A stretch of 14,092 bases of DNA from Clostridia bacterium (GCA_045599485.1 JAZRWA010000022.1:1-14092); one strand, 5' to 3'; positions 536-13,365 are shown, counted from the first letter of the stretch. The notes: a model not told the origin generated them from the sequence alone. Program-made: numbers and translations.

Positions 536-1339
536 TTACCGCCGTCCCAGCTGCCAGAAGGCCACAGCGCCGGCGGCAGCCACGTTCAGCGAATCCACCC
601 CGTGCGCCATGGGAATCAGCACGGTGTAATCACAGCCGCGGATGGTTTCCTCGCGCAGTCCGTTGCCTTCCGCCCCCAGCACCAGCGCCAGACGCTCCTA
701 TGCCATCAGCCGCGCGTCGTCCACGGCAATGGAACGCTTCGTCAGTGCCAATGCCGCCGAGGCAAAACCCAATGTCTTCAGCTCTCCCGCCACATCGTTG
801 GAGGGCAGGTACGCCCAAGGTACCTGAAAGACCGTGCCCATGCTGACACGTACGGCACGCCGGTGCAGCGGGTCACAGCAGGAGGGGCTCAGCAGCACCG
901 CCTCCATGCCCAGCGCGGCGGCGGAGCGGATCAGGGCGCCGATGTTGGTAGCGTCCGTCACGGCTTCCAGCACGGCGACGCGGCGCGCGCCCCGGCATGC
1001 CTCTCCGGCGGTGCGTTCGGGCGGCCGCTTCATCAGACAGCGGATGCAGCGGTCCGGCATGCAGCCGAGGATGTCGCCCAGCAGCGCATCGGGTCCGGTA
1101 TATACCGGTACGCTGTCATCACAGCGGGCCAAAGCCTCTGCCGCCTGCCCCGTGATGTGCTTTTTTTCCATCATAAAGGCCACGGGGGTGAGCCCCGCGT
1201 CCAGCGCGTGCAGCACCACTTTGCCGCTTTCCGCCATGAAAAGCGCTTCCCGGGGGCGCTGCAGGCTGCGCAGCTGCGCGTCGGTGCGCCGGAAGGGCTC
1301 CAGCTCCGGGGCGTTCGCATCCTTTACTTCAATGATCAT
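536..1339 (-). CDS. TrmH/SpoU family RNA 2'-O-methyltransferase, 267 codons if the in-frame TAG at complement(698..700) is decoded
   Basis: The track ORF 698..1339(-) ends ...SIAVDDARLMA at a TAG. The same frame continues ERLALVLGAEGNGLREETIRGCDYTVLIPMAHGVDSLNVAAAGAVAFWQLGRR to a TAA at 536-538. SpoU motif 1 (LEAVTDATNIGALIRSAAALG) is upstream of the TAG; motifs 2 and 3 (LVLGAEGNGL, IPM..GVDSLNVAAAGAVAFW) are downstream. GGAGG RBS at complement(1345..1349), 5 nt before the ATG. Confidence 0.85.
698..700 (-). other. In-frame TAG codon inside the TrmH-family gene (candidate sense/recoded UAG)
   Basis: Minus-strand reading ...CTG ATG GCA TAG GAG CGT CTG GCG CTG GTG CTG GGG GCG GAA GGC AAC... 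= L M A * E R L A L V L G A E G N. There is no frame change. Confidence 0.8.
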
Positions 1340-1368: not shown

Positions 1369-1397
1369 ATTGTAATGCCGTGCCGCTCCGCTGTCAA
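1369..1397 (-). promoter_or_regulatory. Sigma-70/SigA-type promoter for the TrmH-family gene
   Basis: Minus strand: TTGACA (complement 1392-1397), 17-nt spacer, TACAAT (complement 1369-1374). It lies about 30 nt upstream of the ATG at 1339. Confidence 0.6.
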
Positions 1398-1487: not shown

Positions 1488-2537
1488 ATGGAGCAATCCG
1501 TTCTGGATGAGATCGGCGGCATTCTTTCCTCTTTGGACAGCCGCGTGCTGCTGCTGGATGCGTCGGGCACTTGTCTGGCCCCGTCCGCGGGGGAAAAAAT
1601 AACGCTGCCCAGGCATTTATCCTTCGGCGGCGTGGCGGAAAAAGACGGCAGGCTGTTTTTTGCTTCCGCCCGGGAGCCGCTGATCATTGCCTCCGATAAA
1701 CAGAACGGCGGCGATGTGCCGCTGATGGCGCTGCGGCTGTGCGAAAGCCTGCTGACGCGCCGGCGTACGGAGGGCGAAGGAAGCTTTTGGTACCGCCTGC
1801 TGACGGGCACACTTTCCGCCGGATAGACCGAAGCGTTGATCCGTGAGAACGGCATTGAGGACGCGCTGCGGGCGGTCATGATCCTGCAATTGCCTGCTTT
1901 GAAACATGGCACGGCGCAGGAAATGCTGGAGGCCAACCTGCCGCTGACCCCGGGACACGATGTGCTGGTGCCGCTCGACAGCCGCACGGCGGCGCTCATC
2001 AAGCCCGTTTCGGCGGGAGACAGCCCGCAGGACCTGATGGAATACGCCGAGGCGGTGCGTGAAACGCTGCTCAGCGAGGAAGGCGAAGACGCTGTGATCG
2101 CCGTAAGCGACATCATCGGCGAAGCCGCCGCGCTGCATGCCGCCTTTCAGCACGCGGGCGAAGCCATGGAAACAGGCCGTACCTTCCGCCCGGAAATGCG
2201 GGTCTACGGCTATGACGCGCTGCTGCTGGAGCGCTTTCTCAGCGATATTCCGCCCGAGACAGCGGCACGCTACCACCAACTGCTGTTCAACCGCCGCACC
2301 GCACGTGTGCTGACGGAGGAGATCCTGGACACAGTCAGCATGTTTTTTGAAAAGGACCTGAACCTGTCGGACACGGCCCGGCAGCTGTACATCCATCGCA
2401 ACACGCTGGTATACCGTCTGGATAAGATCCAGCGGCTGACCGGTCTGGATCTGAGAAAGTTTGATGATGCCGTGACCTTCCGCATGCTGCTTGAAATGAA
2501 AAAATGCGCAGAGAAGGGAAAGCACCCTACTGCCTGA
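1488..2537 (+). CDS. PucR/CdaR-family transcriptional regulator (C-terminal PucR HTH), 349 codons if the in-frame TAG at 1824..1826 is decoded
   Basis: Track ORFs 1488..1826 and 1836..2537 are in the same frame (348 nt apart). They read ...YRLLTGTLSAG * TEALIRENGIEDALRAV... The C-terminus carries the PucR-type HTH (LNLSDTARQLYIHRNTLVYRLDKIQRLTGLDLR). RBS AAAGGAGAA at 1472-1480, ATG at 1488, TGA stop at 2535-2537. Confidence 0.8.
1824..1826 (+). other. In-frame TAG codon inside the PucR-family gene (candidate sense/recoded UAG)
   Basis: GCC GGA TAG ACC GAA GCG TTG ATC CGT GAG AAC GGC = A G * T E A L I R E N G. The frame is unchanged, and the DNA-binding domain is encoded about 600 nt downstream. 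Confidence 0.75.
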
Positions 2538-2552
2538 CGGAGGAAAACAAAC

Positions 2553-3767
2553 ATGAAAAAACGGTTTTTTGCCCTGCTTTTATGCCTGGTGCTGTGCTGC
2601 TCCGCGGCTTTGGCGGACAGCGTTTTCGGCAACAACGGCGTGTTTGGCGTGGGCGGCACGGTCACCATTACCCGGGCGGAATACGAGCGCCTCAAGCAGT
2701 ATGAAAAGCTGGACGAGGTGCTGCAGTATATTGAAGCCTACTATTACAAAGAGCCCGACACCGGCGACATGATGGACATGGCCATTCAGGGCCTGCTGGC
2801 CGGCTTGAATGACCCCTATACCTTCTATTATGACGCCGAAGCCTGGGCGGACATGTGGGAGGAGGAAGAGGGCGAGTACACGGGTATCGGTCTGCAGCTG
2901 CTGGGCAGCTATCTGGACTACACCGTGACCATCACCCGTGTCTTCCGTGATACCCCCGCCGAAAAGGTGGGGCTGAGAAAGAATGACCTGCTGGTGCGTG
3001 TGGAGGACATCACCGTGACCACCGAGACCATGCAGAACGCCGTCAATGTGATGCGCGGCAAGGTGGGCGAAAGCGTGGAGGTGGAGGTGTACCGCGACGG
3101 CGAATACCTGACCTTTACGGTCGAACGCGCCGCCATCCACACCAACAATGTGGATTGGTGCATGCTGGATAACAACGTGGGCTATCTGATCCTGTACCAG
3201 TTCTCCACGGAATCGCTGCTGCAGGATTTCAAGACCGCATTGAAGGACCTGGAGGCGCAGGGCGCCAGGAGCCTGGTGCTGGATCTGCGTGACAACCCCG
3301 GCGGCTGGGTCAATGACGCCGTCGGTGTGGCGGATGTTTTCCTGGATAAAAAACTGGTGGTCTATTCCCGTACCCGTGACCAGGAACGCACCGATGAGCA
3401 GTATACCAAAGCCGGGGCGGATGATATTCCGCTGGTGGTGCTGATCAACGGCTCCTCCGCTTCGTCCAGCGAGATCTTGTCCGGCTGTCTGCAGGATTAC
3501 GGCCGCGCCGTCATCATGGGCAGCCAGAGCTTCGGCAAGGGCGTCATGCAGTATGTGATCGGCCTGTCCGATAACAAGACGGGCATGCAGTTTACCTTCT
3601 GCGAGTACTTTACCCCCAACGGCAACAGCGTGCACGGCATCGGCATTACCCCGGATATCGCGGTGGAAATGCCCGCCGATCTGAAAAACAAGCTGTTTGA
3701 GGTAGGCGACATGGCCGACCCGCAGCTGGCGGCGGCATGGGAAGAGGCCGTGCGCCTGCAGCAGTGA
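2553..3767 (+). CDS. S41 family C-terminal processing (tail-specific) protease, exported
   Basis: 404 aa. Signal peptide MKKRFFALLLCLVLCCSAALA/DS, a PDZ-like region, the S41 serine motif (LINGSSASSSEILSGCLQD) and the FGKG lysine motif. GGAGG at 2539-2543, TGA stop. Confidence 0.9.
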   Translation: MKKRFFALLLCLVLCCSAALADSVFGNNGVFGVGGTVTITRAEYERLKQYEKLDEVLQYIEAYYYKEPDTGDMMDMAIQGLLAGLNDPYTFYYDAEAWADMWEEEEGEYTGIGLQLLGSYLDYTVTITRVFRDTPAEKVGLRKNDLLVRVEDITVTTETMQNAVNVMRGKVGESVEVEVYRDGEYLTFTVERAAIHTNNVDWCMLDNNVGYLILYQFSTESLLQDFKTALKDLEAQGARSLVLDLRDNPGGWVNDAVGVADVFLDKKLVVYSRTRDQERTDEQYTKAGADDIPLVVLINGSSASSSEILSGCLQDYGRAVIMGSQSFGKGVMQYVIGLSDNKTGMQFTFCEYFTPNGNSVHGIGITPDIAVEMPADLKNKLFEVGDMADPQLAAAWEEAVRLQQ

Positions 3768-3779
3768 CGGGAGGTTCAA

Positions 3780-4742
3780 GTGAAAAAACGGATATCGACC
3801 TTTTTGCTGCTGATGCTGCTTGTGTCGCTGCTGTGCCCGGCGGTGCTGGCGGATGAGGTGATTCCCGCCCATGATAAGCACGAACGCCCCGAGATCGAGG
3901 GCATGGGGGAGGACGGTTTTCTGACACAGGCGGAGGCGGAATTTGTGCTGGCCGATGCAGAAGAAGGCCTGTGGATGTATGTCAGCGATGCCCTGCGCAT
4001 TGAAATTGACCGCTACACCGCCTCCAACCGCAAGCTGATCTGGTACACCGCGCACATATGGCAAAAGGAAGGGGACGGCATGCACACCTTCCTGGCCGAC
4101 CCGGCGCATCCCTTCGGTCTAGCGCTGCTGGTGGAGGAAATTGCCCGGCAGTATCAATTGGTGTTTGCCATCAATGGTGACTTTTTTGAGGATCGTTACC
4201 GTGAGGGCGAAAAGATCGGCTGCGTCATCAAAAACAAAGTGGTCATCAACCGCTATGCGCAGGAACTGGATAACCTGCCCACGCTGGATGTGCTGGCGCT
4301 GTTTGAGGACGGCACCATGAAATGCTTTAGGGCGCGCAGCAACAGCGCGGACAAATATCTGGCCATGGGCGTGCGCGACACCATCTGCTTCGGTCCCATT
4401 CTGGTGTCCGAGGGCAGCATCAATATGAAGCAGCTGGAGGAATACGGCCGCTCCCGCGAGCCGCGCACCGCGCTTGGCATGGTGGAAAACGGACATTATG
4501 TTGCCATCGTCTGCGAGGGACGCTCGGAGGAGAGCGACGGCCTGCGCCTGAGTGAGCTGGCCCCCCTGATGCAGGCGGAGGGCTGTGTGGAAGCGCTCAA
4601 CCTTGACGGCGGTCAGACCTCGGTCATCAGCTTTATGGGCGAAAAGCTCAATGCCACCGGTACCTTCCATAACAGCTCCAGACCGCGCCGCGTGACGGAT
4701 ATCGTGGGCATTGGCGTAAGCGATCTGGTTTCCGCCGAGTAA
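3780..4742 (+). CDS. Phosphodiester glycosidase family protein (NAGPA / DUF2233-like), exported, paralog 1
   Basis: 320 aa, GTG start 5 nt after GGGAGG (3769-3774). Signal peptide MKKRISTFLLLMLLVSLLCPAVLA/DE. Family-typical motifs: REPRTALG...GHYVAIVCEGR and EALNLDGGQTSV. TAA stop. Confidence 0.8.
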   Translation: MKKRISTFLLLMLLVSLLCPAVLADEVIPAHDKHERPEIEGMGEDGFLTQAEAEFVLADAEEGLWMYVSDALRIEIDRYTASNRKLIWYTAHIWQKEGDGMHTFLADPAHPFGLALLVEEIARQYQLVFAINGDFFEDRYREGEKIGCVIKNKVVINRYAQELDNLPTLDVLALFEDGTMKCFRARSNSADKYLAMGVRDTICFGPILVSEGSINMKQLEEYGRSREPRTALGMVENGHYVAIVCEGRSEESDGLRLSELAPLMQAEGCVEALNLDGGQTSVISFMGEKLNATGTFHNSSRPRRVTDIVGIGVSDLVSAE

Positions 4743-4766
4743 ACAACAGAGGAGAAAAACAACCAT

Positions 4767-5711
4767 ATGAAAAAAGCGCTGATGGCGCTGCTGCTTTTGC
4801 TTTCGGTGTGCGGCGGCGCGCTGGCGGATGTGCCGGTGAGAGCCAATGAGCCGTGTGCCCGCCCCGAGGTGGAAAACCTGGGGGAGGATGGCTATCTGAC
4901 CGAAACGGATGAGCTTGTGTTCATCGATGAAACGGCGGGACTGTGGTACTATGTCAGTGATGAGCTGCGCGTGGAGATCGACCGCTATACGGCCTCCGAC
5001 CGCAAGCTGATCTGGTATGTGGCGCATCTGTATCAGAAAACGCCCACTGGTCTGCGTACCGCGCTGGCAAATGAAAAAAAGCCCTACGATGACCGCATGT
5101 GGGTGTATGATCTGGCTGAGAGGGAAAAGATGGTCTTTGCCACCAACGGCGATTATTTTGCCACCCGTCTGGATGAATCCGCCGGTGTGGGCATCGTCAT
5201 CCGTCATGGACGGGTCATCAGCTCCAAGGGCAAAGCGAGCAGCAAGATCCCCACGCGGGAGATCATCGCCATGTATGAGGACGGCAGCATGAAGTGCTAT
5301 GGCGCCAACGAATACAAGGCGTCCTCTCTGGCGGAAGCCGGCGTGCGTGATACGCTGTGCTTTGGCCCCATTCTGGTACGGGATGGGCAGGTGGAGACCA
5401 AACGCCTGGACGAGATGGGCTCCTCCCGTGAGCCGCGGTGCGCTATCGGCATGGTGGAGCCCGGCCATTATGTGGCCATCCTGACGGAAGGCCGTACGGA
5501 TGACTCGATCGGCGCACGTCTTTTGACGCTGGGCGATATGATGGCGGCGGAGGGCTGTGTGGAGGCGCTGAACCTGGACGGCGGACAATCGGCTGTCATG
5601 TGCTTCATGGGCAAAAAGATCAGCTCCACCGGGCATACTTCCACCAGCACCCAGAGCCGCAAGATGACCGACATTGTCGGCATCGGCTACAGTGAACTTG
5701 TAGGACAGTGA
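4767..5711 (+). CDS. Phosphodiester glycosidase family protein (NAGPA / DUF2233-like), exported, paralog 2
   Basis: 314 aa. Signal peptide MKKALMALLLLLSVCGGALA/DV. Collinear with the upstream paralog (EIDRYTASDRKLIWYVAHLY, REPRCAIGMVEPGHYVAILTEGR, AEGCVEALNLDGGQSAV). TGA stop. Confidence 0.8.
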   Translation: MKKALMALLLLLSVCGGALADVPVRANEPCARPEVENLGEDGYLTETDELVFIDETAGLWYYVSDELRVEIDRYTASDRKLIWYVAHLYQKTPTGLRTALANEKKPYDDRMWVYDLAEREKMVFATNGDYFATRLDESAGVGIVIRHGRVISSKGKASSKIPTREIIAMYEDGSMKCYGANEYKASSLAEAGVRDTLCFGPILVRDGQVETKRLDEMGSSREPRCAIGMVEPGHYVAILTEGRTDDSIGARLLTLGDMMAAEGCVEALNLDGGQSAVMCFMGKKISSTGHTSTSTQSRKMTDIVGIGYSELVGQ

Positions 5712-5713
5712 AT

Positions 5714-6892
5714 ATGAAAAAAATGCTGATGTATGCCGTGCTGCTGCTGACGCTGCTGATGACGGCGGCGTGTGCAGAGACGGCGGCGGAGCGTACCGCC
5801 TCCTGCACATTCAAGCTGGGAAAAACGGCTTTGACACAGAAGGAACGCGGCAAGCTGCTGGACAGGGATTATTCCACCCATTATGATATCGCGAGCCGCA
5901 AAACACTGACCATCGAAAGCGAAAAGCAGCTGGGCGGCATGTACCTGCAGATCTTTGATGTGGTGCGCGCGCTGACCATGGAAGTGAAAACCAACGGCGA
6001 ATGGCAGGAGTACTGCGTCAATCCCCAGCATCTGAGCGACTGGTACGCTTTCCCGGATAAGACCACGGCAGTGCGCATTTACAACGCCGATAAGGAAAAC
6101 AAGCTCAAGCTGGCGGAAGTGACCCTGTACGGCCCCGGGGACAAGCCCGAAAAGGTACCGCAGTGGATCGATCTGGAGAAGTGCGACCTGATGCTTCTGG
6201 CGACGCATCCCGATGACGATCTGCTGTGGTTCGGCGGCCTGATGCCCACCTACGCGGGGGAAAGGGGCTACAAGGTGCAGGTGGTGTACATGGTGCCCAC
6301 CGGCGGACTGCGCAAGCTGGAAATGCTGGACGCCCTGTGGACCTGCGGCGTCACGGCTTATCCCGGCCTGCTCAATCTGCGCGACCAGCGCGGCAAAAAC
6401 CTCAGTGAGCAGTACTCCCTGTGGGGACAGAAGACCGTCACCACCAAGGTGGTGGAGGCCATCCGCCGCTATAAGCCGTAGGTGCTGGTCACGCATGGTC
6501 TGGGCGGTGAATACGGACACCCCGGTCATAAGGCCGCGGCGGATACCGTGACGCGCGCCGTCGGTTATGCCGCGGATAAAAGCAACCGCCCCGCCTCAGT
6601 GGAAAAGTACGGTGTGTGGCAGGTCAAAAAGGTCTATCTGCATGAGTACAGCAAAAATCAGATCGAGATGGACTGGCATGTGCCGTTGGAAGCCTTTGGC
6701 GGCAAGGACAGCCTGACCGTCGCGCAGGAGGCCATGCTCTGCCACGCCAGCCAGGTCAAGGGCGGCTGGATGGTGGAGGACCACGGCAAGCATGATAATA
6801 CGCTTTTCGGTCTTTACAGCACCACGGTGGGTGAGGACATCGAGAAGAATGATTTTATGGAAAATATCGTCCTGGAGAACAATACACCGTAA
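5714..6892 (+). CDS. PIG-L/LmbE family deacetylase with lipoprotein-type signal and extra N-terminal domain, 392 codons if the in-frame TAG at 6479..6481 is decoded
   Basis: Track ORFs 5708..6481 and 6482..6892 are contiguous in the same frame: ...VVEAIRRYKP * VLVTHGLGGEYGHPGHKAAA... The PIG-L motif LLATHPDDDLLWFGG is upstream of the TAG and the HP(G/D)H motif is downstream. The likely start is ATG 5714 (MKKMLMYAVLLLTLLMTAAC, lipobox-like); GTG 5708 is an alternative. TAA stop at 6890-6892. Confidence 0.8.
6479..6481 (+). other. In-frame TAG codon inside the PIG-L deacetylase gene (candidate sense/recoded UAG)
   Basis: TAT AAG CCG TAG GTG CTG GTC ACG CAT GGT = Y K P * V L V T H G. It sits inside the conserved 'R.xKP-x-VvvTH' stretch of the family. 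Confidence 0.8.
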
Positions 6893-6898
6893 CGCATG

Positions 6899-6928
6899 GA
6901 AAGGGAGTCCGGATGAGGGCTCCCTTTC
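6899..6928 (+). terminator. Stem-loop after the PIG-L gene (possible terminator or mRNA-end structure; lacks a clear U-tract)
   Basis: GAAAGGGAG (6899-6907) pairs with CTCCCTTTC (6920-6928), extendable by TCC/GGG. It starts 7 nt after the TAA. It is followed by TGACAAAC, which is not T-rich. Confidence 0.4.
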
Positions 6929-6967
6929 TGACAAACAGGATTTGAACATTTCTTGCTCGGTTGTTAT

Positions 6968-6996
6968 TTGAAATTTTTTTCGGGAGAGTATATAAT
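6968..6996 (+). promoter_or_regulatory. Sigma-70/SigA-type promoter for the glycosyltransferase gene
   Basis: TTGAAA (6968-6973), 17-nt spacer, TATAAT (6991-6996), in an AT-rich intergenic region about 30 nt upstream of the ATG at 7027. Confidence 0.55.
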
Positions 6997-7026
6997 AGAA
7001 AAAAGACCGAAAAAAGGAGGTGCACG

Positions 7027-8298
7027 ATGGAACCAAGGATCAGAACAGCTTTGCTGAACGACTCTTTTCCGCCGCAGATCGACGGCGTGGCCAACGCGGT
7101 GATCAATTATGCCTCGCTGCTGCATGGCCGCGGGGATGATGTCATGGTGATCACGCCGGCCTATCCCGGTGTGGAGGATCATTATGATTATGAGGTGCTG
7201 CGCTATTCCAGTGTGGACACCACCAAGATCATCGGTTATCGTGCCGGTTACCCTTTTTCGGCTTCCGCTGTGCAGCGGGTGGTGGATTTTGCCCCTGATA
7301 TTCTGCACACGCATTGCCCCGTCTCTTCGCTGCTGATGGCCCGCGTGGTGCGGTAGAGGACCGGTGCGCCCATTGTGTTTACCTATCATACCAAGTTTGA
7401 TATCGATATCCGCACCGCCATCAAAAGCAAGGCACTGCAGGACAGCCTGATCCGCGCCATTCTGTGGAACATTGAGGGCGCCGATGAGGTATGGACGGTC
7501 AGCCGCGGCGCGGGAGAGAATCTGGAATCCATCGGCTATCAGGGCAAGTGGCGCGTGATGGACAACGGTGTTGATTTTGCCCGCGGTCACGCCTCGATGG
7601 AAAAACAGAACGAGATCAGCCGCCTGCATAACCTGACCGATCACGCACCGGTGTTTTTGTTTACCGGCCGTCTGCGCTGGTACAAGGGCATCCGCATCAT
7701 TCTTTAGGGTCTGGCCAAGGCCAAAGCCCGCGGCGCCAAGTTTCATATGCTGTTTGTGGGCGATGGCAGCGACCGCGGTGAGATCGAGGAGCTGGCGCAA
7801 AAGCTGGGGCTGACCGATCAATGCGTCTTTGTGGGCGCGGTGCAGGATCGTGAGCTGCTGCGGGCGTATTACAGCCGTGCCGATCTGTTCCTGTTCCCGT
7901 CTACCTTTGATACCAACGGCATCGTGGTGCGCGAGGCGGCCGCCTGCGGTCTGGGTGCCGTGCTGGTCAAGGGCAGCTGTGCCGCCGAGGGCATTACCGA
8001 TGGACAGAATGGCATCCTCATCGGTGAAAATGCCGACAGTCTGTGCGCGGCGGTGCTGTTTGCCTGCTCCCACCGCAATGAAGTGCGGCAGGTCGGCCTG
8101 CATGCGGAGAATGAGATCTATCTTTCCTGGGAGGATTCGGTGGCGCGGGCTCGTACCCGTTATGCCGAGCTGCTGGAGGAGCGCAAAGCAAACCCGCCGG
8201 AAAAGCGGCATGATGCCTTTCCTTTCCTGTCCGACATTGTGGAGGGCGCCGGCCGCCTGCAGCGGTGGCATCGCCTGCTGAACGCCAAGCTGAAGTGA
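7027..8298 (+). CDS. Family 4 (GT-B) glycosyltransferase, 423 codons if the two in-frame TAGs (7354..7356, 7705..7707) are decoded
   Basis: Track ORFs 6961..7356, 7375..7707 and 7747..8298 all share one frame. They read ...CPVSSLLMARVVR * RTGAPIVFTYHTKFDIDI... and ...GRLRWYKGIRIIL * GLAKAKARGAKFHMLFVGDGSD... The N-terminus is GT4-like (LNDSFPPQIDGVANAV). The C-terminal Glycos_transf_1-like domain has FPSTFDTNGIVVREAAACG. AAGGAGG at 7013-7019, ATG at 7027, TGA stop at 8296-8298. Confidence 0.85.
7354..7356 (+). other. In-frame TAG codon #1 inside the GT4 gene (candidate sense/recoded UAG)
   Basis: GTG GTG CGG TAG AGG ACC GGT GCG CCC ATT GTG TTT ACC TAT CAT = V V R * R T G A P I V F T Y H. No frame change. 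Confidence 0.8.
7705..7707 (+). other. In-frame TAG codon #2 inside the GT4 gene (candidate sense/recoded UAG)
   Basis: ATC ATT CTT TAG GGT CTG GCC AAG GCC AAA = I I L * G L A K A K. It lies in the 'KG(l/i)xxLlxAl' helix that opens the C-terminal Rossmann domain. Confidence 0.8.
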
Positions 8299-8418: not shown

Positions 8419-8510
8419 TGGCGGAGAAGGAGAGATTTGAACTCTCGCTGCCGTTATCCAGCACTACTCCCTTAGCAGGGGAGCCCCTTCGGCCTCTTGG
8501 GTACTTCTCC
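8419..8510 (-). tRNA. tRNA-Ser (anticodon GCU), class II with long variable arm, CCA encoded
   Basis: Minus strand folded by hand: GGAGAAG-TA-CCC..GGG-G-CTCCC-CTGCTAA-GGGAG-(20-nt variable arm)-GAGAG-TTCAAAT-CTCTC-CTTCTCC-G-CCA. The anticodon loop CU-GCU-AA reads AGY. Confidence 0.9.
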
Positions 8511-8532
8511 ATCGGTCGGTAATCGGCAAAAC

Positions 8533-8621
8533 TGGCGGAGAGAGAGGGATTCGAACCCCCGGTGCCTTTCGACATCACCAGTTTTCAAGACTGGCGCCTT
8601 AAACCGCTCGGCCATCTCTCC
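8533..8621 (-). tRNA. tRNA-Ser (anticodon UGA), class II with long variable arm, CCA encoded
   Basis: Minus strand folded by hand: GGAGAGA-TG-GCC..GGC-G-CCAGT-CTTGAAA-ACTGG-(variable arm)-GGGGG-TTCGAAT-CCCTC-TCTCTCC-G-CCA. The anticodon loop CU-UGA-AA reads UCN. Confidence 0.9.
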
Positions 8622-8659: not shown

Positions 8660-8688
8660 AGTATAGCAGTTTTTTTCCCTGTTGTCAA
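8660..8688 (-). promoter_or_regulatory. Sigma-70/SigA-type promoter for the tRNA-Ser pair
   Basis: Minus strand: TTGACA (complement 8683-8688), 17-nt spacer, TATACT (complement 8660-8665). It lies about 40 nt upstream of the tRNA 5' end at 8621. Confidence 0.6.
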
Positions 8689-8764
8689 TGCCCGTTCGCT
8701 AATTTCTTTTGAGGCGCGGGGGAAGGGAAAACGCGGCTTTTTTTTCGCAAAATGCCCATAATTA

Positions 8765-8794
8765 TTGACATAATACGGTGTTTTATCCTATAAT
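8765..8794 (+). promoter_or_regulatory. Sigma-70/SigA-type promoter for prfC-typA
   Basis: TTGACA (8765-8770), 18-nt spacer, TATAAT (8789-8794). A small hairpin TGTGGC-AAC-GCCACA (8802-8816) sits just before the RBS GGAAGGAGGG. Confidence 0.65.
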
Positions 8795-8831
8795 AACTGA
8801 TTGTGGCAACGCCACAGGAAGGAGGGCACTT

Positions 8832-10421
8832 ATGCTCGCAGAGGAAGTAGCCCGCAGAAGAACATTTGCTATTATCTCCCATCCCGACGCCGGCAAAACC
8901 ACATTGACCGAAAAACTGCTGCTGTACGGCGGCGCCATCCGCCAGGCCGGTTCCGTCAAGGCCCGCAAGGCAGAACGCCACGCGACCAGCGACTGGATGG
9001 AGATCGAAAAGCAGCGCGGCATCTCCGTTACCTCCAGTGCCATGCAGTTCTCCTTCAACGGTTTTGATATCAACATTCTCGATACCCCCGGCCATCAGGA
9101 CTTTTCCGAGGATACCTACCGCGTGCTGGTGGCAGCGGACAGCGCTGTGATGCTCATCGACGCCGCCAAGGGCGTGGAGGAGCAGACCATCAAGCTGTTC
9201 AAGGTGTGCCGTATGCGCGGCATTCCGATTTTTACCTTTGTCAACAAGATGGACCGTGCCGCCAAGGATCCCTTCGCCCTGATGGACGAACTGGAAAACG
9301 TGCTTGGCATCCACGCCTGCCCCATCAACTGGCCCATTGGCACCGACGGCGATTTTCAGGGCGTGTATCACCGTGATACCCGCATGATCGAATTGTATTC
9401 CGGCGGCGATCACGGCAAGAACAAGGCGCAGAAGACCGATGTTTCTCTGGACGATCCCGACCTGGGAACGCTGCTGGAAAAGCACTACATCAACCGCCTG
9501 AATGACGAGATCGAGCTGCTGGACGAGGCCGGCGACGATTTTGATCTGGAGGCCGTGCGCGAAGGCAGGCTGACCCCCATGTTCTTTGGCAGCGCCGTCA
9601 CCAACTTCGGTGTGGAGCCTTTCCTGGAGCGGTTCCTGTCCTACACCACGCCGCCCCTGCCCCGCGAGAGCAATGAGGGCTGGGTGCAGCCCGATGATGA
9701 ACGCTTCAGCGGCTTCATCTTCAAAATTCAGGCCAACATGAACCCCGCCCACCGTGACCGTCTGGCCTTCCTGCGCATCGTCAGCGGCCAGTTCACCAAA
9801 GGCATGACGGTGTGGCATTCCGGCACCGGCAAGGAGATCCAGGTCAAGCAGCCGCAGCAGTTTATGGCAGATGAGCGTGAAGGCATCGAAACGGCCTGGC
9901 CCGGCGATATCATCGGTCTGTTCGATCCCGGTATTTATCATCTGGGCGACACGCTGTGCGTGGGCCGCAAGATCCGCTTCCAGAAGATCCCCGTGTTTGC
10001 GCCCGAGCATTTTGCCCGTGTGCGTCCGCTGGATTCGATGAAGCGCAAGCAGTTTGTCAAGGGCATCATGCAGCTGAGCGAGGAAGGCGCCATCCAGACC
10101 TTCCGCCGCACCGAGACCGGCATTGAGGATTTCCTTGTCGGCGTGGTCGGTGTGCTGCAGTTTGATGTGCTGACCTACCGCCTCAAGAGTGAGTACGGTG
10201 TCGATCTGGTACTGGAGCAGTTGCCCTTCCGCTATGTGCGTTGGGTGACCGCCACCGAGATCCCCGTGCCCGACCTGAAGCTGACCAGCACCTCCGGCCG
10301 TGCTTTTGACGCCGAGGAGCGGGATGTACTGCTGTTTGAAAACGAGTGGAGCATCCGTCTGGCACAGGAAAACAACAAGGGCCTGGAGCTGGCCGAACTG
10401 GCTCCCCGCGAGATCTACTGA
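8832..10421 (+). CDS. prfC: Peptide chain release factor 3 (RF3), translational GTPase
   Basis: 529 aa starting MLAEEVARRRTFAIISHPDAGKTTLTEKLLLYGGAIRQAGSVKARK...DWMEIEKQRGISVTSS...DTPGHQDF..NKMDR. This is the characteristic RF3 N-terminus with G motifs, and the length is RF3-like. ATG 8832 lies 5 nt after GGAAGGAGGG. TGA stop at 10419-10421. Confidence 0.9.
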   Translation: MLAEEVARRRTFAIISHPDAGKTTLTEKLLLYGGAIRQAGSVKARKAERHATSDWMEIEKQRGISVTSSAMQFSFNGFDINILDTPGHQDFSEDTYRVLVAADSAVMLIDAAKGVEEQTIKLFKVCRMRGIPIFTFVNKMDRAAKDPFALMDELENVLGIHACPINWPIGTDGDFQGVYHRDTRMIELYSGGDHGKNKAQKTDVSLDDPDLGTLLEKHYINRLNDEIELLDEAGDDFDLEAVREGRLTPMFFGSAVTNFGVEPFLERFLSYTTPPLPRESNEGWVQPDDERFSGFIFKIQANMNPAHRDRLAFLRIVSGQFTKGMTVWHSGTGKEIQVKQPQQFMADEREGIETAWPGDIIGLFDPGIYHLGDTLCVGRKIRFQKIPVFAPEHFARVRPLDSMKRKQFVKGIMQLSEEGAIQTFRRTETGIEDFLVGVVGVLQFDVLTYRLKSEYGVDLVLEQLPFRYVRWVTATEIPVPDLKLTSTSGRAFDAEERDVLLFENEWSIRLAQENNKGLELAELAPREIY

Positions 10422-10439
10422 TAGAAAGTGTGAAACTGC

Positions 10440-12266
10440 ATGATTCGTTCTGATATCCGCAACATTGCGATTATCGCCCACGTTGACCACGGCAAGACCT
10501 CCCTGGTCAACGAAATGCTCAAGCAGGGCGGCGTTTTCCGTGCCAATCAGGAGGTGGCTGACCGCGTCATGGACTCCAACGATCTGGAGCGCGAGCGCGG
10601 CATCACCATTCTGTCCAAAAACACGGCGGTGCACTACGGCGATGTCAAGATCAACATCGTCGACACCCCCGGCCACGCCGACTTTGGCGGCGAGGTGGAG
10701 CGCGTGCTCAAAATGGTGGACGGCGTGCTGCTGCTGGTGGACAGCTTTGAAGGTCCCATGCCGCAGACCCGCTTCGTGCTGTCCAAGGCGCTGGCGCTGA
10801 ACCTGCCCGTGCTGATCTGCATCAACAAGATCGACCGTCCCGACGCCCGCTGCGGCGAGGTGGTGGACGAGATCCTCGATCTGCTGATCGACCTGAACGC
10901 CGATCCCGAAACGCTGGAGCGCCCCATCCTGTATGCTTCTGCCCGCAAGGGTACCTGTACGCTGGATCTGGAGCAGCCCGGCACCGACCTGCGTCCGCTG
11001 TTTGAAGCCATCCTCAAGTACATTCCCGCCCCCGAGGGCGAGATGGATGGCCCTGCGCAGGTGCTGATCTCCACCATTGACTACAGCGAATACGTGGGCC
11101 GTATCGGCATCGGCCGCATCAGCCGCGGCAGCCTGAGATCCGGTCAGATGGTGGTGCGCTGCAACTATCTGGATGACAAGGTGACGCCCCCGTGGCGCTT
11201 GACCGAGCTGAGCACCTTTGACGGCCTCAAGCGTATCCCGACCGATCAGATGGCCATGGGCGATATCGTGGCGCTGACGGGTCTGCAGGATATCAGCATC
11301 GGTGATACGGTGTGTCAGCCCGATACGGTGGAGCCCCTGCCCTTTGTGACCATCAGCGAGCCCACGGTGACCATGACCTTCTCGGTCAACGATTCGCCCT
11401 TTGCCGGCCGCGAAGGCCAGTTTGTGACGAGCCGTCACCTGCGTGCCCGTCTCTATCGTGAACTGCAGACCGATATGTCCCTGCGCGTCAAGGACGGCGA
11501 AACGCCCGATTGCTTTGAGGTGTGCGGACGCGGTGAGCTGCATCTGTCCATTCTGATCGAGACCATGCGCCGTCAGGGCTATGAGTTCCAGGTGTCCAAA
11601 CCCGAGGTCATCTACAAGGAGATCGACGGCGTATCCTGCGAGCCCATTGAGCGCATGGTGGCGGATGTGCCCTCCGCTTATGCCGGCGCCGTCATCGAAA
11701 AGATCGGCCGCCGCCGCGGCACGCTGGAAAGCATGGACGGCACCGACCGTGTGCGCCTGGAGTTCCTGGTGCCCAGCCGCGGACTGTTTGGCTACCGCAG
11801 TGAGTTTTTGACCGATACCCGCGGCGAAGGCGTGATGAGCTCGGTATTTGAAAAGTACGAGCCCTTCCGCGGCGACATTCCGCACCGCGCTGTGGGCGCC
11901 CTGATCGTGCACGAAACGGGCGAGACCACGACCTATGGTCTGTTCTACGCGCAGGAGCGCGGCACGCTGTTCATGGGCAATCAGGTGCCTGTGTACGCCG
12001 GTCAGATCTGCGGCGCAAGCAGCCGCCCCGGCGATATCCCCGTCAATGTTTGCCGCAAAAAGCATGTCAACAACATCCGCAACAGCTCTGCCGCCGAAGA
12101 CAGCATGCGCCTGGTCAGCGTGCATCCGCTGACGCTGGAGGAGTGCCTGGAGTTTATCGACAGCGATGAGCTGCTTGAGATCACGCCCAAGACCCTGCGC
12201 ATGCGCAAGCGTGTGCTGAGCCATGAGCAGCGCATGAAGAACGCTGCCCGCGGCATCAAGTGCTGA
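10440..12266 (+). CDS. typA: Translational GTPase TypA/BipA
   Basis: 608 aa. [24 protein letters not shown]..., [37 protein letters not shown], and a C-terminal BipA-type domain. TGA stop. Confidence 0.92.
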
Positions 12267-13014: not shown

Positions 13015-13365
13015 ATGAGCGAAATTATCAAGAGCATTGAAAATGCGCAGCTTCGTACCGATCGTCCCGCATTCAACGTTGGCGACACCGTGCGTGTGCA
13101 GGTCAAGGTTGTTGAAGGTACCCGCGAGCGTCTGCAGGCGTTCGAAGGTGTTGTGATTGCCAAGCGCAATGGCTCCTGCCGTGAGACCTTTACGGTCCGC
13201 CGCGTGAGCTACGGCATCGGCGTGGAACGTACGTTCCCGCTGCATAGCCCCCGTGTGGACAGCATTACTGTTGTCCGTAAGGGCAAGGTGCGCCGCGCCA
13301 AGCTGTATTATCTGCGTGGTCTGCAGGGCAAGGCTGCCAAGATCAAGGACATCACCCGCGAATAA
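13015..13365 (+). CDS. rplS: 50S ribosomal protein L19
   Basis: 116 aa: [111 protein letters not shown]. This is a canonical L19. GAAGGAGG RBS, TAA stop. Confidence 0.95.

Follow-up and report, generated by a model that had tools for sequence, protein, structure and literature searches.

In-frame UAG codons in a PucR/CdaR-type regulator gene and its neighbours suggest decoding of UAG as glutamate in a gut Clostridia lineage

The window analysed here, a stretch of 14,092 nucleotides from Clostridia bacterium GCA_045599485.1 (contig JAZRWA010000022.1), carries at positions 1488 to 2537 of the plus strand a gene for a PucR/CdaR-family transcriptional regulator that is interrupted by an in-frame TAG. 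This raises the question of whether the codon is a real stop that splits the regulator, a switch that acts through the efficiency of UAG decoding, or a sense codon. The regulator TAG is very probably translated as a sense codon. The best reading of the comparative data is that of an ordinary 349-residue PucR/CdaR-type protein with Glu113, which would be produced under a lineage-wide decoding of UAG as glutamate. Positions and counts refer to the window unless another contig is named.

The frame of the regulator runs from ATG 1488 to TGA 2535-2537 and is interrupted only by the TAG at 1824-1826 on the plus strand (codon 113, predicted to encode Glu). Translation from ATG 1488 confirmed the view of the initial annotation that this TAG lies in frame in an otherwise intact PucR/CdaR-type gene. 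The residues before the TAG are FWYRLLTGTLSAG, and the context reads LLTGTLSAG, the TAG, and then TEALIRENGIED. The sequence LSDTARQLYIHRNTLVYRLDKIQRLTGL, which had been recognised as the PucR-type helix-turn-helix (HTH), is present in this frame, and its placement at the C-terminus was borne out by a Pfam match to HTH_30 (PF13556) at residues 280-336 (E=1.1e-19, 70.3 bits, cutoff 27). A GGDEF-like middle domain, GGDEF_2 (PF17853), was matched at residues 128-228 with 23.5 bits, slightly below the cutoff of 24.5 bits, and the same domain is precomputed for every listed ortholog of the regulator. The TAG is located N-terminal of this middle domain and does not adjoin the HTH. The number of codons past the TAG is 236 (112 + 1 + 236 = 349) and not 233 as first counted, the latter figure being that of a mechanical open reading frame (ORF) starting at TTG 1836. 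The deposited annotation is broken at the TAG into products of 112 and 233 amino acids (aa). The gene for an S41 peptidase starts with ATG 2553, 15 nucleotides past the end of the regulator and in the same frame, as had been reported.

The best 120 homologs of the regulator were all found to be single polypeptides of 345-384 aa with GGDEF_2 and HTH_30. Among them, the column of the TAG is occupied by Glu in 118 and by Asp in two, and an ortholog with 95% identity reads SAG-E-TES across the position. Alignment across the TAG, the check that had been proposed at the outset, showed that the orthologs are not two separate genes. Together with an omega of about 0.06 over the 236 codons past the TAG, this supports the proposal that both halves belong to one gene and that the TAG is translated.

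The regulator is not the only gene with an interrupted frame. When the ORFs of the window were listed with TAG as a sense codon, several more frames grew longer, and five in-frame TAGs were located in four genes (SpoU/TrmH, PucR, PIG-L and GT4), at positions 698-700 (minus strand), 1824, 6479, 7354 and 7705. The first one, CTA on the plus strand, is codon 214 of a gene for a SpoU/TrmH-family RNA methyltransferase (536 to 1339, minus strand, 267 aa). The SpoU_methylase domain (121-261) spans it, and the conserved catalytic motifs LVLGAEGNGL...IPM...SLNVAAA all lie past it. In the gene for an exported PIG-L/LmbE-type deacetylase (5714 to 6892, plus strand, 392 aa) the TAG is codon 256 (6479-6481, plus strand), which is spanned by the PIG-L domain (160-282). 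The gene for a GT4-family glycosyltransferase (7027 to 8298, plus strand, 423 aa) contains two TAGs, codon 110 (7354-7356) and codon 227 (7705-7707), both on the plus strand, and one is inside each of its Pfam domains Glyco_transf_4 (18-186) and Glycos_transf_1 (195-351). In the 4255 annotated codons of the window, TAG was counted five times and in-frame TAA or TGA not once. The share of UAG among the Glu codons would be about 1.6% (5/315). The 11 complete genes end in TGA (seven) or TAA (four) and none in TAG, and TAG is absent from prfC, typA, rplS and the S41 gene, which are the most conserved genes. As in the regulator, the deposited products are fragments. The glycosyltransferase is represented by a 109-aa 'glycosyltransferase' (MCQ2453905.1) and a product of 307 aa (equivalent locus L004 2871-4142), and the deacetylase by a fragment of 255 aa. 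The TAG-truncated fragments are identical across NCBI, ENA and Logan assemblies.

The TAG sites were then compared among sister genomes. Exact-protein look-ups and one genome scan provided 13 further contigs of the same lineage (numbered with the prefix L), which makes 14 genomes with the window; the genome contig scan contributed one short lineage contig and one distant relative. The sister contigs come from independent samples, namely a metagenome-assembled genome (MAG) from horse faeces (GCA_024404275.1), two ENA assemblies and many Logan runs, and their nucleotide identity to the window was 87-95% where measured. Codon-by-codon alignment across the 14 genomes revealed TAG at eight sites, distributed over six genes. 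In the sister loci neither TAA nor TGA interrupts a frame, and no gene ends in TAG. At codon 113 of the regulator (PucR113) the TAG of the window corresponds to GAG in L001 and L002 and to GAA in L030. At SpoU214 the window has TAG, L001 and L002 have GAA, and L030 has AAA. Two more sites in the methyltransferase gene carry TAG in sister genomes: SpoU68 is TAG in L001 and L030 and GAG in the two others, and SpoU230 is TAG in L001 and GAG, CAG and CAG in the others. At NAGPA1-162, TAG was found in L004 and L005 and GAA in two others. PIGL256 is TAG in the window and GAT or GAC (Asp) in eight genomes, while GT4-227 is TAG in the window, GAA in six genomes and GAG in one. The eighth site, GT4-110, is TAG in all 11 loci that cover it, from independent samples, and is fixed lineage-wide.

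The seven polymorphic sites alternate with Glu codons (GAA/GAG) at six positions and with Asp at one. At a background Glu frequency of 7.3%, the binomial probability of a Glu partner at six of seven sites is about 1e-6 by our own arithmetic. Three of the partners are GAA, which is two substitutions from TAG. These speak against random nonsense mutation, because they are predicted by a synonymous path GAA-GAG-TAG and not by a nonsense model. An outward walk with the exact rplS protein gave contigs of 1.4-2.6 kb with zero new TAG sites.

The residue expected at the TAG positions was evaluated with distant orthologs. Glu was found in 102/119 sequences at GT4-110, in 106/119 at SpoU214 and in 74/119 at SpoU68. 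The column of GT4-227 contains 64 Glu and 43 Asp, that of PIGL256 has 67 Glu and 36 Asp among 148 sequences, and SpoU230 is variable. Log-odds scores were summed over seven TAG columns of distant orthologs in the manner of Codetta, which resulted in +20.0 bits for Glu, -0.9 for Asp, -11.2 for Gln, -13.1 for Ala and -17.6 for Lys.

Purifying selection is strong 3' of every TAG. Omega values (Nei-Gojobori, window against sister genomes) past every TAG were 0.04-0.09, equal to or below the upstream values: 0.06 in the regulator, 0.04-0.05 in the methyltransferase, 0.07-0.09 in the deacetylase and 0.04-0.05 after both TAGs of the glycosyltransferase. After the fixed GT4-110 TAG, omega was 0.045 over 314 codons at a dS of 0.4-0.6. 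The substitutions between the window and L001 are dominated by transitions, with no excess of G-to-T changes, and this spectrum rules out oxidative G-to-T damage or a mutY-type artefact.

Elements that could recode individual TAGs were also looked for. No stable RNA structure was detected in the 100 nucleotides after each TAG (z from -1.7 to +1.1 relative to shuffled controls); the lowest value, z = -1.7, belongs to the regulator TAG, for which 11 of 200 shuffles fold equally well. No common motif was found in the nucleotides flanking the window TAGs, and Rfam matched only two tRNAs and no recoding element in the window. A SECIS- or PYLIS-like element, or gene-specific programmed recoding, was rejected on the grounds that there is no structure, no shared context and no conservation of the regulator TAG.

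Based on the occurrence of TAG in many genes, the Glu columns, the alternation with GAA and GAG, the fixed site, the purifying selection and the lack of an RNA element, we consider it likely that UAG is read as glutamate across the whole genome of this uncultured gut Clostridia lineage. Under such a lineage-wide change of the code, the regulator TAG would be a rare synonym of the Glu codons and not a gene-specific switch. Decoding would be the work of a Glu-charged tRNA whose anticodon is CUA. It may have originated from a duplicate of tRNA-Glu by a C36-to-A change, or from a tRNA-Gln-like species that is charged by a non-discriminating glutamyl-tRNA synthetase (GluRS) and left unamidated by GatCAB. 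Non-discriminating GluRS is common in Clostridia. Release factor 1 (RF1) would be lost or unable to compete at UAG, and release factor 2 (RF2) would terminate at UAA and UGA. If UAG stops were already rare, as in relatives with the standard code (1/29), there would have been room for codon capture, after which TAG, GAG and GAA could interchange as synonymous codons along a GAA-GAG-TAG walk.

Several observations weigh against this proposal. ARAGORN found no tRNA with a CUA anticodon in the window or in any of 30 loci, and none lies in about 60 kb of lineage DNA; the only tRNAs detected were two tRNA-Ser genes. A scan of JGI metagenomes for a tRNA-Glu anticodon arm with CUA, using the pattern CACCGCCYTCTAACGGCGGTA modelled on the conserved bacterial arm, gave one chance match inside an ORF of 1777 aa, although this negative says little, because the lineage proteins stem from NCBI, ENA and Logan and not from JGI. 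The regulator TAG itself was found in a single assembly, that of the present contig. The data cover a single stretch of the chromosome, about 14 kb long, in several genomes, and 'genome-wide' is an extrapolation from it. Finally, the missing TAG stops of the window are weak evidence, because relatives with the standard code also rarely use TAG.

These relatives deserve a closer description. The organism of contigs L014-L019, with PrfC at least 90% identical and a GC content of 58-60%, uses the standard code, and its 29 called gene ends are TAA (21), TGA (seven) and TAG (one). This suggests that TAG stops were scarce before the capture, and such scarcity may have predisposed the clade to capture of UAG. 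The strong TAA preference in L014-L019 (e.g. L014 1-21590) is unusual for GC-rich DNA. The nearest uninterrupted ortholog of the glycosyltransferase, on JGI contig L013, is 72% identical and has Glu at both TAG sites, and no in-frame TAG was found among the neighbouring genes of L013. A split gene in the outgroup was considered as a further TAG case and discarded, as it results from an indel of 1-2 nucleotides. The indel, at codon 37 of a gene for a 194-aa Cys-rich secreted protein, breaks this gene in L014 (6030-6613), L015 and L019, three out of six outgroup assemblies, by comparison with L016 (6043-6627); a homopolymer error or phase variation could account for it.

Among the alternatives, ambiguous decoding survives best, and we regard it as unlikely. 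In this case an amber-suppressor tRNA-Glu would coexist with a functional RF1, and UAG would give a mixture of termination and Glu. Expression of the genes with a TAG, the regulator among them, would be lowered and might vary with conditions, which is the nearest surviving form of the regulatory idea. The rarity of TAG (5/4255 codons) is consistent with such a state, as is its absence from prfC, typA, rplS and the S41 gene, probably the most highly expressed genes. A suppressor would moreover be tolerable with RF1 kept, because relatives rarely end genes in TAG. On the other hand, the GT4-110 TAG is fixed lineage-wide, and the two TAGs in the single glycosyltransferase gene would compound the loss by termination. 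TAG also interchanges freely with GAG and GAA between near-identical strains, and apart from GT4-110 there is no conserved TAG that looks regulated.

It is highly improbable that UAG stands for another residue, such as pyrrolysine (Pyl), glutamine or an acidic non-canonical residue. UAG-to-Pyl and UAG-to-Gln are documented precedents in prokaryotes and phages, the variable site SpoU230 is CAG in two sister genomes, and comparative data cannot separate Glu from a Glu-like residue. The summed scores, however, disfavour both Gln and Lys strongly relative to Glu, and the near-invariant Glu columns (118/120, 106/119 and 102/119) would reject the bulky, cationic Pyl. Decoding as Pyl was rejected on the score of Lys and on the Glu/Asp composition of the TAG columns; in addition, neither pyl genes nor methyltransferase genes of the methylamine type are present in the window, and no TAG-bearing gene is a methylamine methyltransferase gene.

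A split regulator, or readthrough specific to this gene, is scarcely tenable. The TAG would be a real stop, translation up to it would give a sensor fragment of 112 aa, and occasional readthrough or re-initiation would supply the HTH. The position of the TAG, past the N-terminal region but ahead of the GGDEF-like domain and the HTH, would suit such an arrangement, as would the conserved partner gene 15 nucleotides downstream. The sister genomes, however, have GAG or GAA at codon 113, all of the 120 homologs are single proteins with a near-invariant Glu in this column, and no structure follows the TAG. Besides, TAG also breaks the frames of five other genes (SpoU, NAGPA, PIG-L and GT4 twice) at positions of Glu. 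Re-initiation was dismissed, since no Shine-Dalgarno-like sequence was seen by eye upstream of TTG 1836 or of the following ATG in this frame. The split-regulator or programmed-readthrough reading is largely refuted. The suggestion of the initial annotation that UAG decoding efficiency could be a regulatory input is not supported: the TAG is not conserved in the regulator, no signal accompanies it, and it has equivalents in five unrelated genes.

Least credible of all is the view that the TAGs are nonsense mutations of pseudogenes, sequencing or assembly errors, or G-to-T damage in a low-quality MAG: MAG contigs are error-prone, GAG becomes TAG by one G-to-T change and four of the five window TAGs are confined to the present assembly, but the in-frame stops are only TAG and never TAA or TGA, the TAG of GT4-110 recurs in 11 independent assemblies and those of SpoU68 and NAGPA1-162 in two each, omega downstream is 0.04-0.09 without a G-to-T excess, three GAA partners are two steps away, and Glu is the partner at six of seven sites (p about 1e-6).

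The window, a complete NCBI MAG contig, has a GC content of 58.6% and is syntenic with Clostridia MAGs. It contains an intact prfC (release factor 3) without TAG (8832 to 10421, plus strand), which has no bearing on RF1, typA (10440-12266) and rplS (13015-13365), for which Pfam matches to RF3_C, BipA_C and Ribosomal_L19, respectively, were obtained on the orthologous calls. The presence of these genes and of two tRNA-Ser genes shows that the contig is bacterial chromosomal DNA rather than contamination from a phage or a eukaryote. The two adjacent tRNA-Ser genes (anticodons GCT and TGA; 8419-8621, minus strand) lie between the glycosyltransferase gene and prfC, are kept in L004 and L005, and are not suppressors. 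An ORF of 1179 aa (8685-12224, minus strand) runs antisense to prfC and typA; it is rich in Ala, Gly and His and has no plausible protein features, and we regard it as a shadow ORF of GC-rich DNA, not as a gene. The yhhN gene begins with a GTG inside typA, so that the two genes overlap by 7 nucleotides (12260-12266). YhhN was called as 202, 184 or 174 aa in sister contigs, which is due to the choice of start codon and not to TAGs. Past rplS, an opposite-strand gene of the HTH_19/XRE type replaces the gene for a 234-aa secreted protein in L021 (911-2313) and L027 (858-1626). This alternative right flank indicates strain-level variation in gene content.

Downstream of the regulator, a same-strand block of exported envelope functions (2553-8298) comprises the S41 peptidase with PDZ domain, two NAGPA proteins, the PIG-L deacetylase and the GT4 glycosyltransferase. 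The S41 gene (2553 to 3767, plus strand; CtpB-like, Peptidase_S41, E=3.4e-47) encodes a probable co-transcribed or regulated partner of the regulator. No terminator-like site was found between the two genes, and their adjacency is retained in L003, a relative with 40% identity in the regulator. The two NAGPA genes encode tandem paralogous phosphodiester glycosidases with signal peptides, and the deacetylase has an extra N-terminal region of about 155 aa. The order NAGPA-PIG-L-GT4 is syntenic in L013 too. The arrangement fits a control of the exported-enzyme block (S41, the two NAGPA paralogues, PIG-L and GT4) by the regulator but does not prove it. On the other side, the divergent genes for SpoU and the regulator are separated by 148 nucleotides, a region that houses a near-consensus promoter of the sigma-70 type upstream of SpoU (1369-1397, minus strand; TTGACA, spacer of 17 nucleotides, TACAAT; 11/12 matches).

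If UAG is indeed read as Glu, the lineage would add a new entry to the natural genetic codes, and the peptide LLTGTLSAGETEALIR would be expected from the regulator. Capture of the amber codon would be possible in a GC-rich gut anaerobe without AT pressure, and it would imply a natural tRNA-Glu(CUA) and translation that is free or independent of RF1, a natural counterpart to the engineered RF1-deleted, amber-free E. coli. Synthetic biology would gain an evolved amber-decoding tRNA/synthetase pair and probably an RF1-independent host. Models of codon capture and of an ambiguous intermediate could be tested directly, with sister lineages with rare TAG stops for comparison. Public annotations of the MAGs of this lineage are wrong, with genes broken at TAGs. 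Given the rarity of the codon, the UAG change would escape tools that select the code by coding density.

According to Shulgina & Eddy (2021, PMC8629427), every stop reassignment known from bacteria concerns UGA, and the bacterial cases in a review-type article of August 2026 (PMC13462651) are likewise of UGA. The KACI survey of April 2026, which covered about 2.7 million assemblies, gives as known or suspected bacterial reassignments those of CGG, CGA and AGG and that of TGA, to Gly or Trp; TAG is absent from them (10.64898/2026.04.02.715157). For UAG in prokaryotes, a genome-wide change is cited only for archaea, where the codon is read as Pyl (Kivenson et al. 2025, as cited in 10.64898/2026.05.24.727570). 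Full-text searches of the literature found no earlier description of UAG-to-Glu in bacteria. With somewhat less assurance than for the decoding as such, we think that UAG alone has probably been reassigned here to a canonical amino acid, Glu, and UAA and UGA kept as stops, in a GC-rich genome whose gene content looks ordinary; this would be the first such case in a natural bacterial chromosome.

The closest bacterial systems are UGA-to-Trp (code 4; Mycoplasmatales, several endosymbionts and some Eggerthellaceae) and UGA-to-Gly (code 25; Absconditabacteria/Gracilibacteria). They are alike in being lineage-wide captures of a stop codon, recognisable from stops within the frames of many genes, at conserved positions, and from an annotation that is fragmented under code 11. 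They differ in that the codon is UGA, the lost factor is RF2 and the decoder is a tRNA(UCA), and most of the genomes are AT-rich or reduced (PMC13462651, PMC8629427). The present case would involve UAG, Glu and RF1 as the factor expected to be lost, at 58.6% GC and with ordinary gene content.

The same residue has been assigned to UAG in nuclear codes of eukaryotes, and peritrich ciliates are among those with UAR-to-Glu. In Blastocrithidia nonstop (NCBI table 31), UAR-to-Glu rests on a cognate tRNA-Glu whose anticodon is mutated (PMC12153298). In these eukaryotic codes UAA is co-reassigned, and Blastocrithidia also has UGA-to-Trp and changes in eRF1. Here UAG alone appears to be affected, and UAA is still a stop (4/11 gene ends).

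Amber-recoded phages (code 15; Lak megaphages and several crAss-like groups) resemble the window in that UAG alone is recoded and TAGs are scattered across many genes. They depend on a suppressor tRNA(CUA), TAG is Gln, and a role of the recoding in the timing of lytic gene expression has been proposed. The DNA studied here is chromosomal (rplS, typA, prfC and trmH) and the predicted residue is Glu; a code 15 phage genome was rejected as its source on the basis of the chromosomal gene content, the synteny with Clostridia MAGs and the score of -11.2 bits for Gln. Archaea with UAG-to-Pyl and Pyl-using bacteria are similar in that UAG is no dedicated stop and is a rare codon that hardly changes the coding density under code 11. 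These systems need pylTSBCD and insert a lysine derivative, whereas the TAG columns described here are dominated by Glu and strongly disfavour Lys. Compared with PucR/CdaR regulators in general (Pfam HTH_30 and GGDEF_2), the protein of the window agrees in its C-terminal HTH and its length of about 350 aa, its middle domain is matched just short of the cutoff, and its only oddity would be a Glu113 encoded by TAG.

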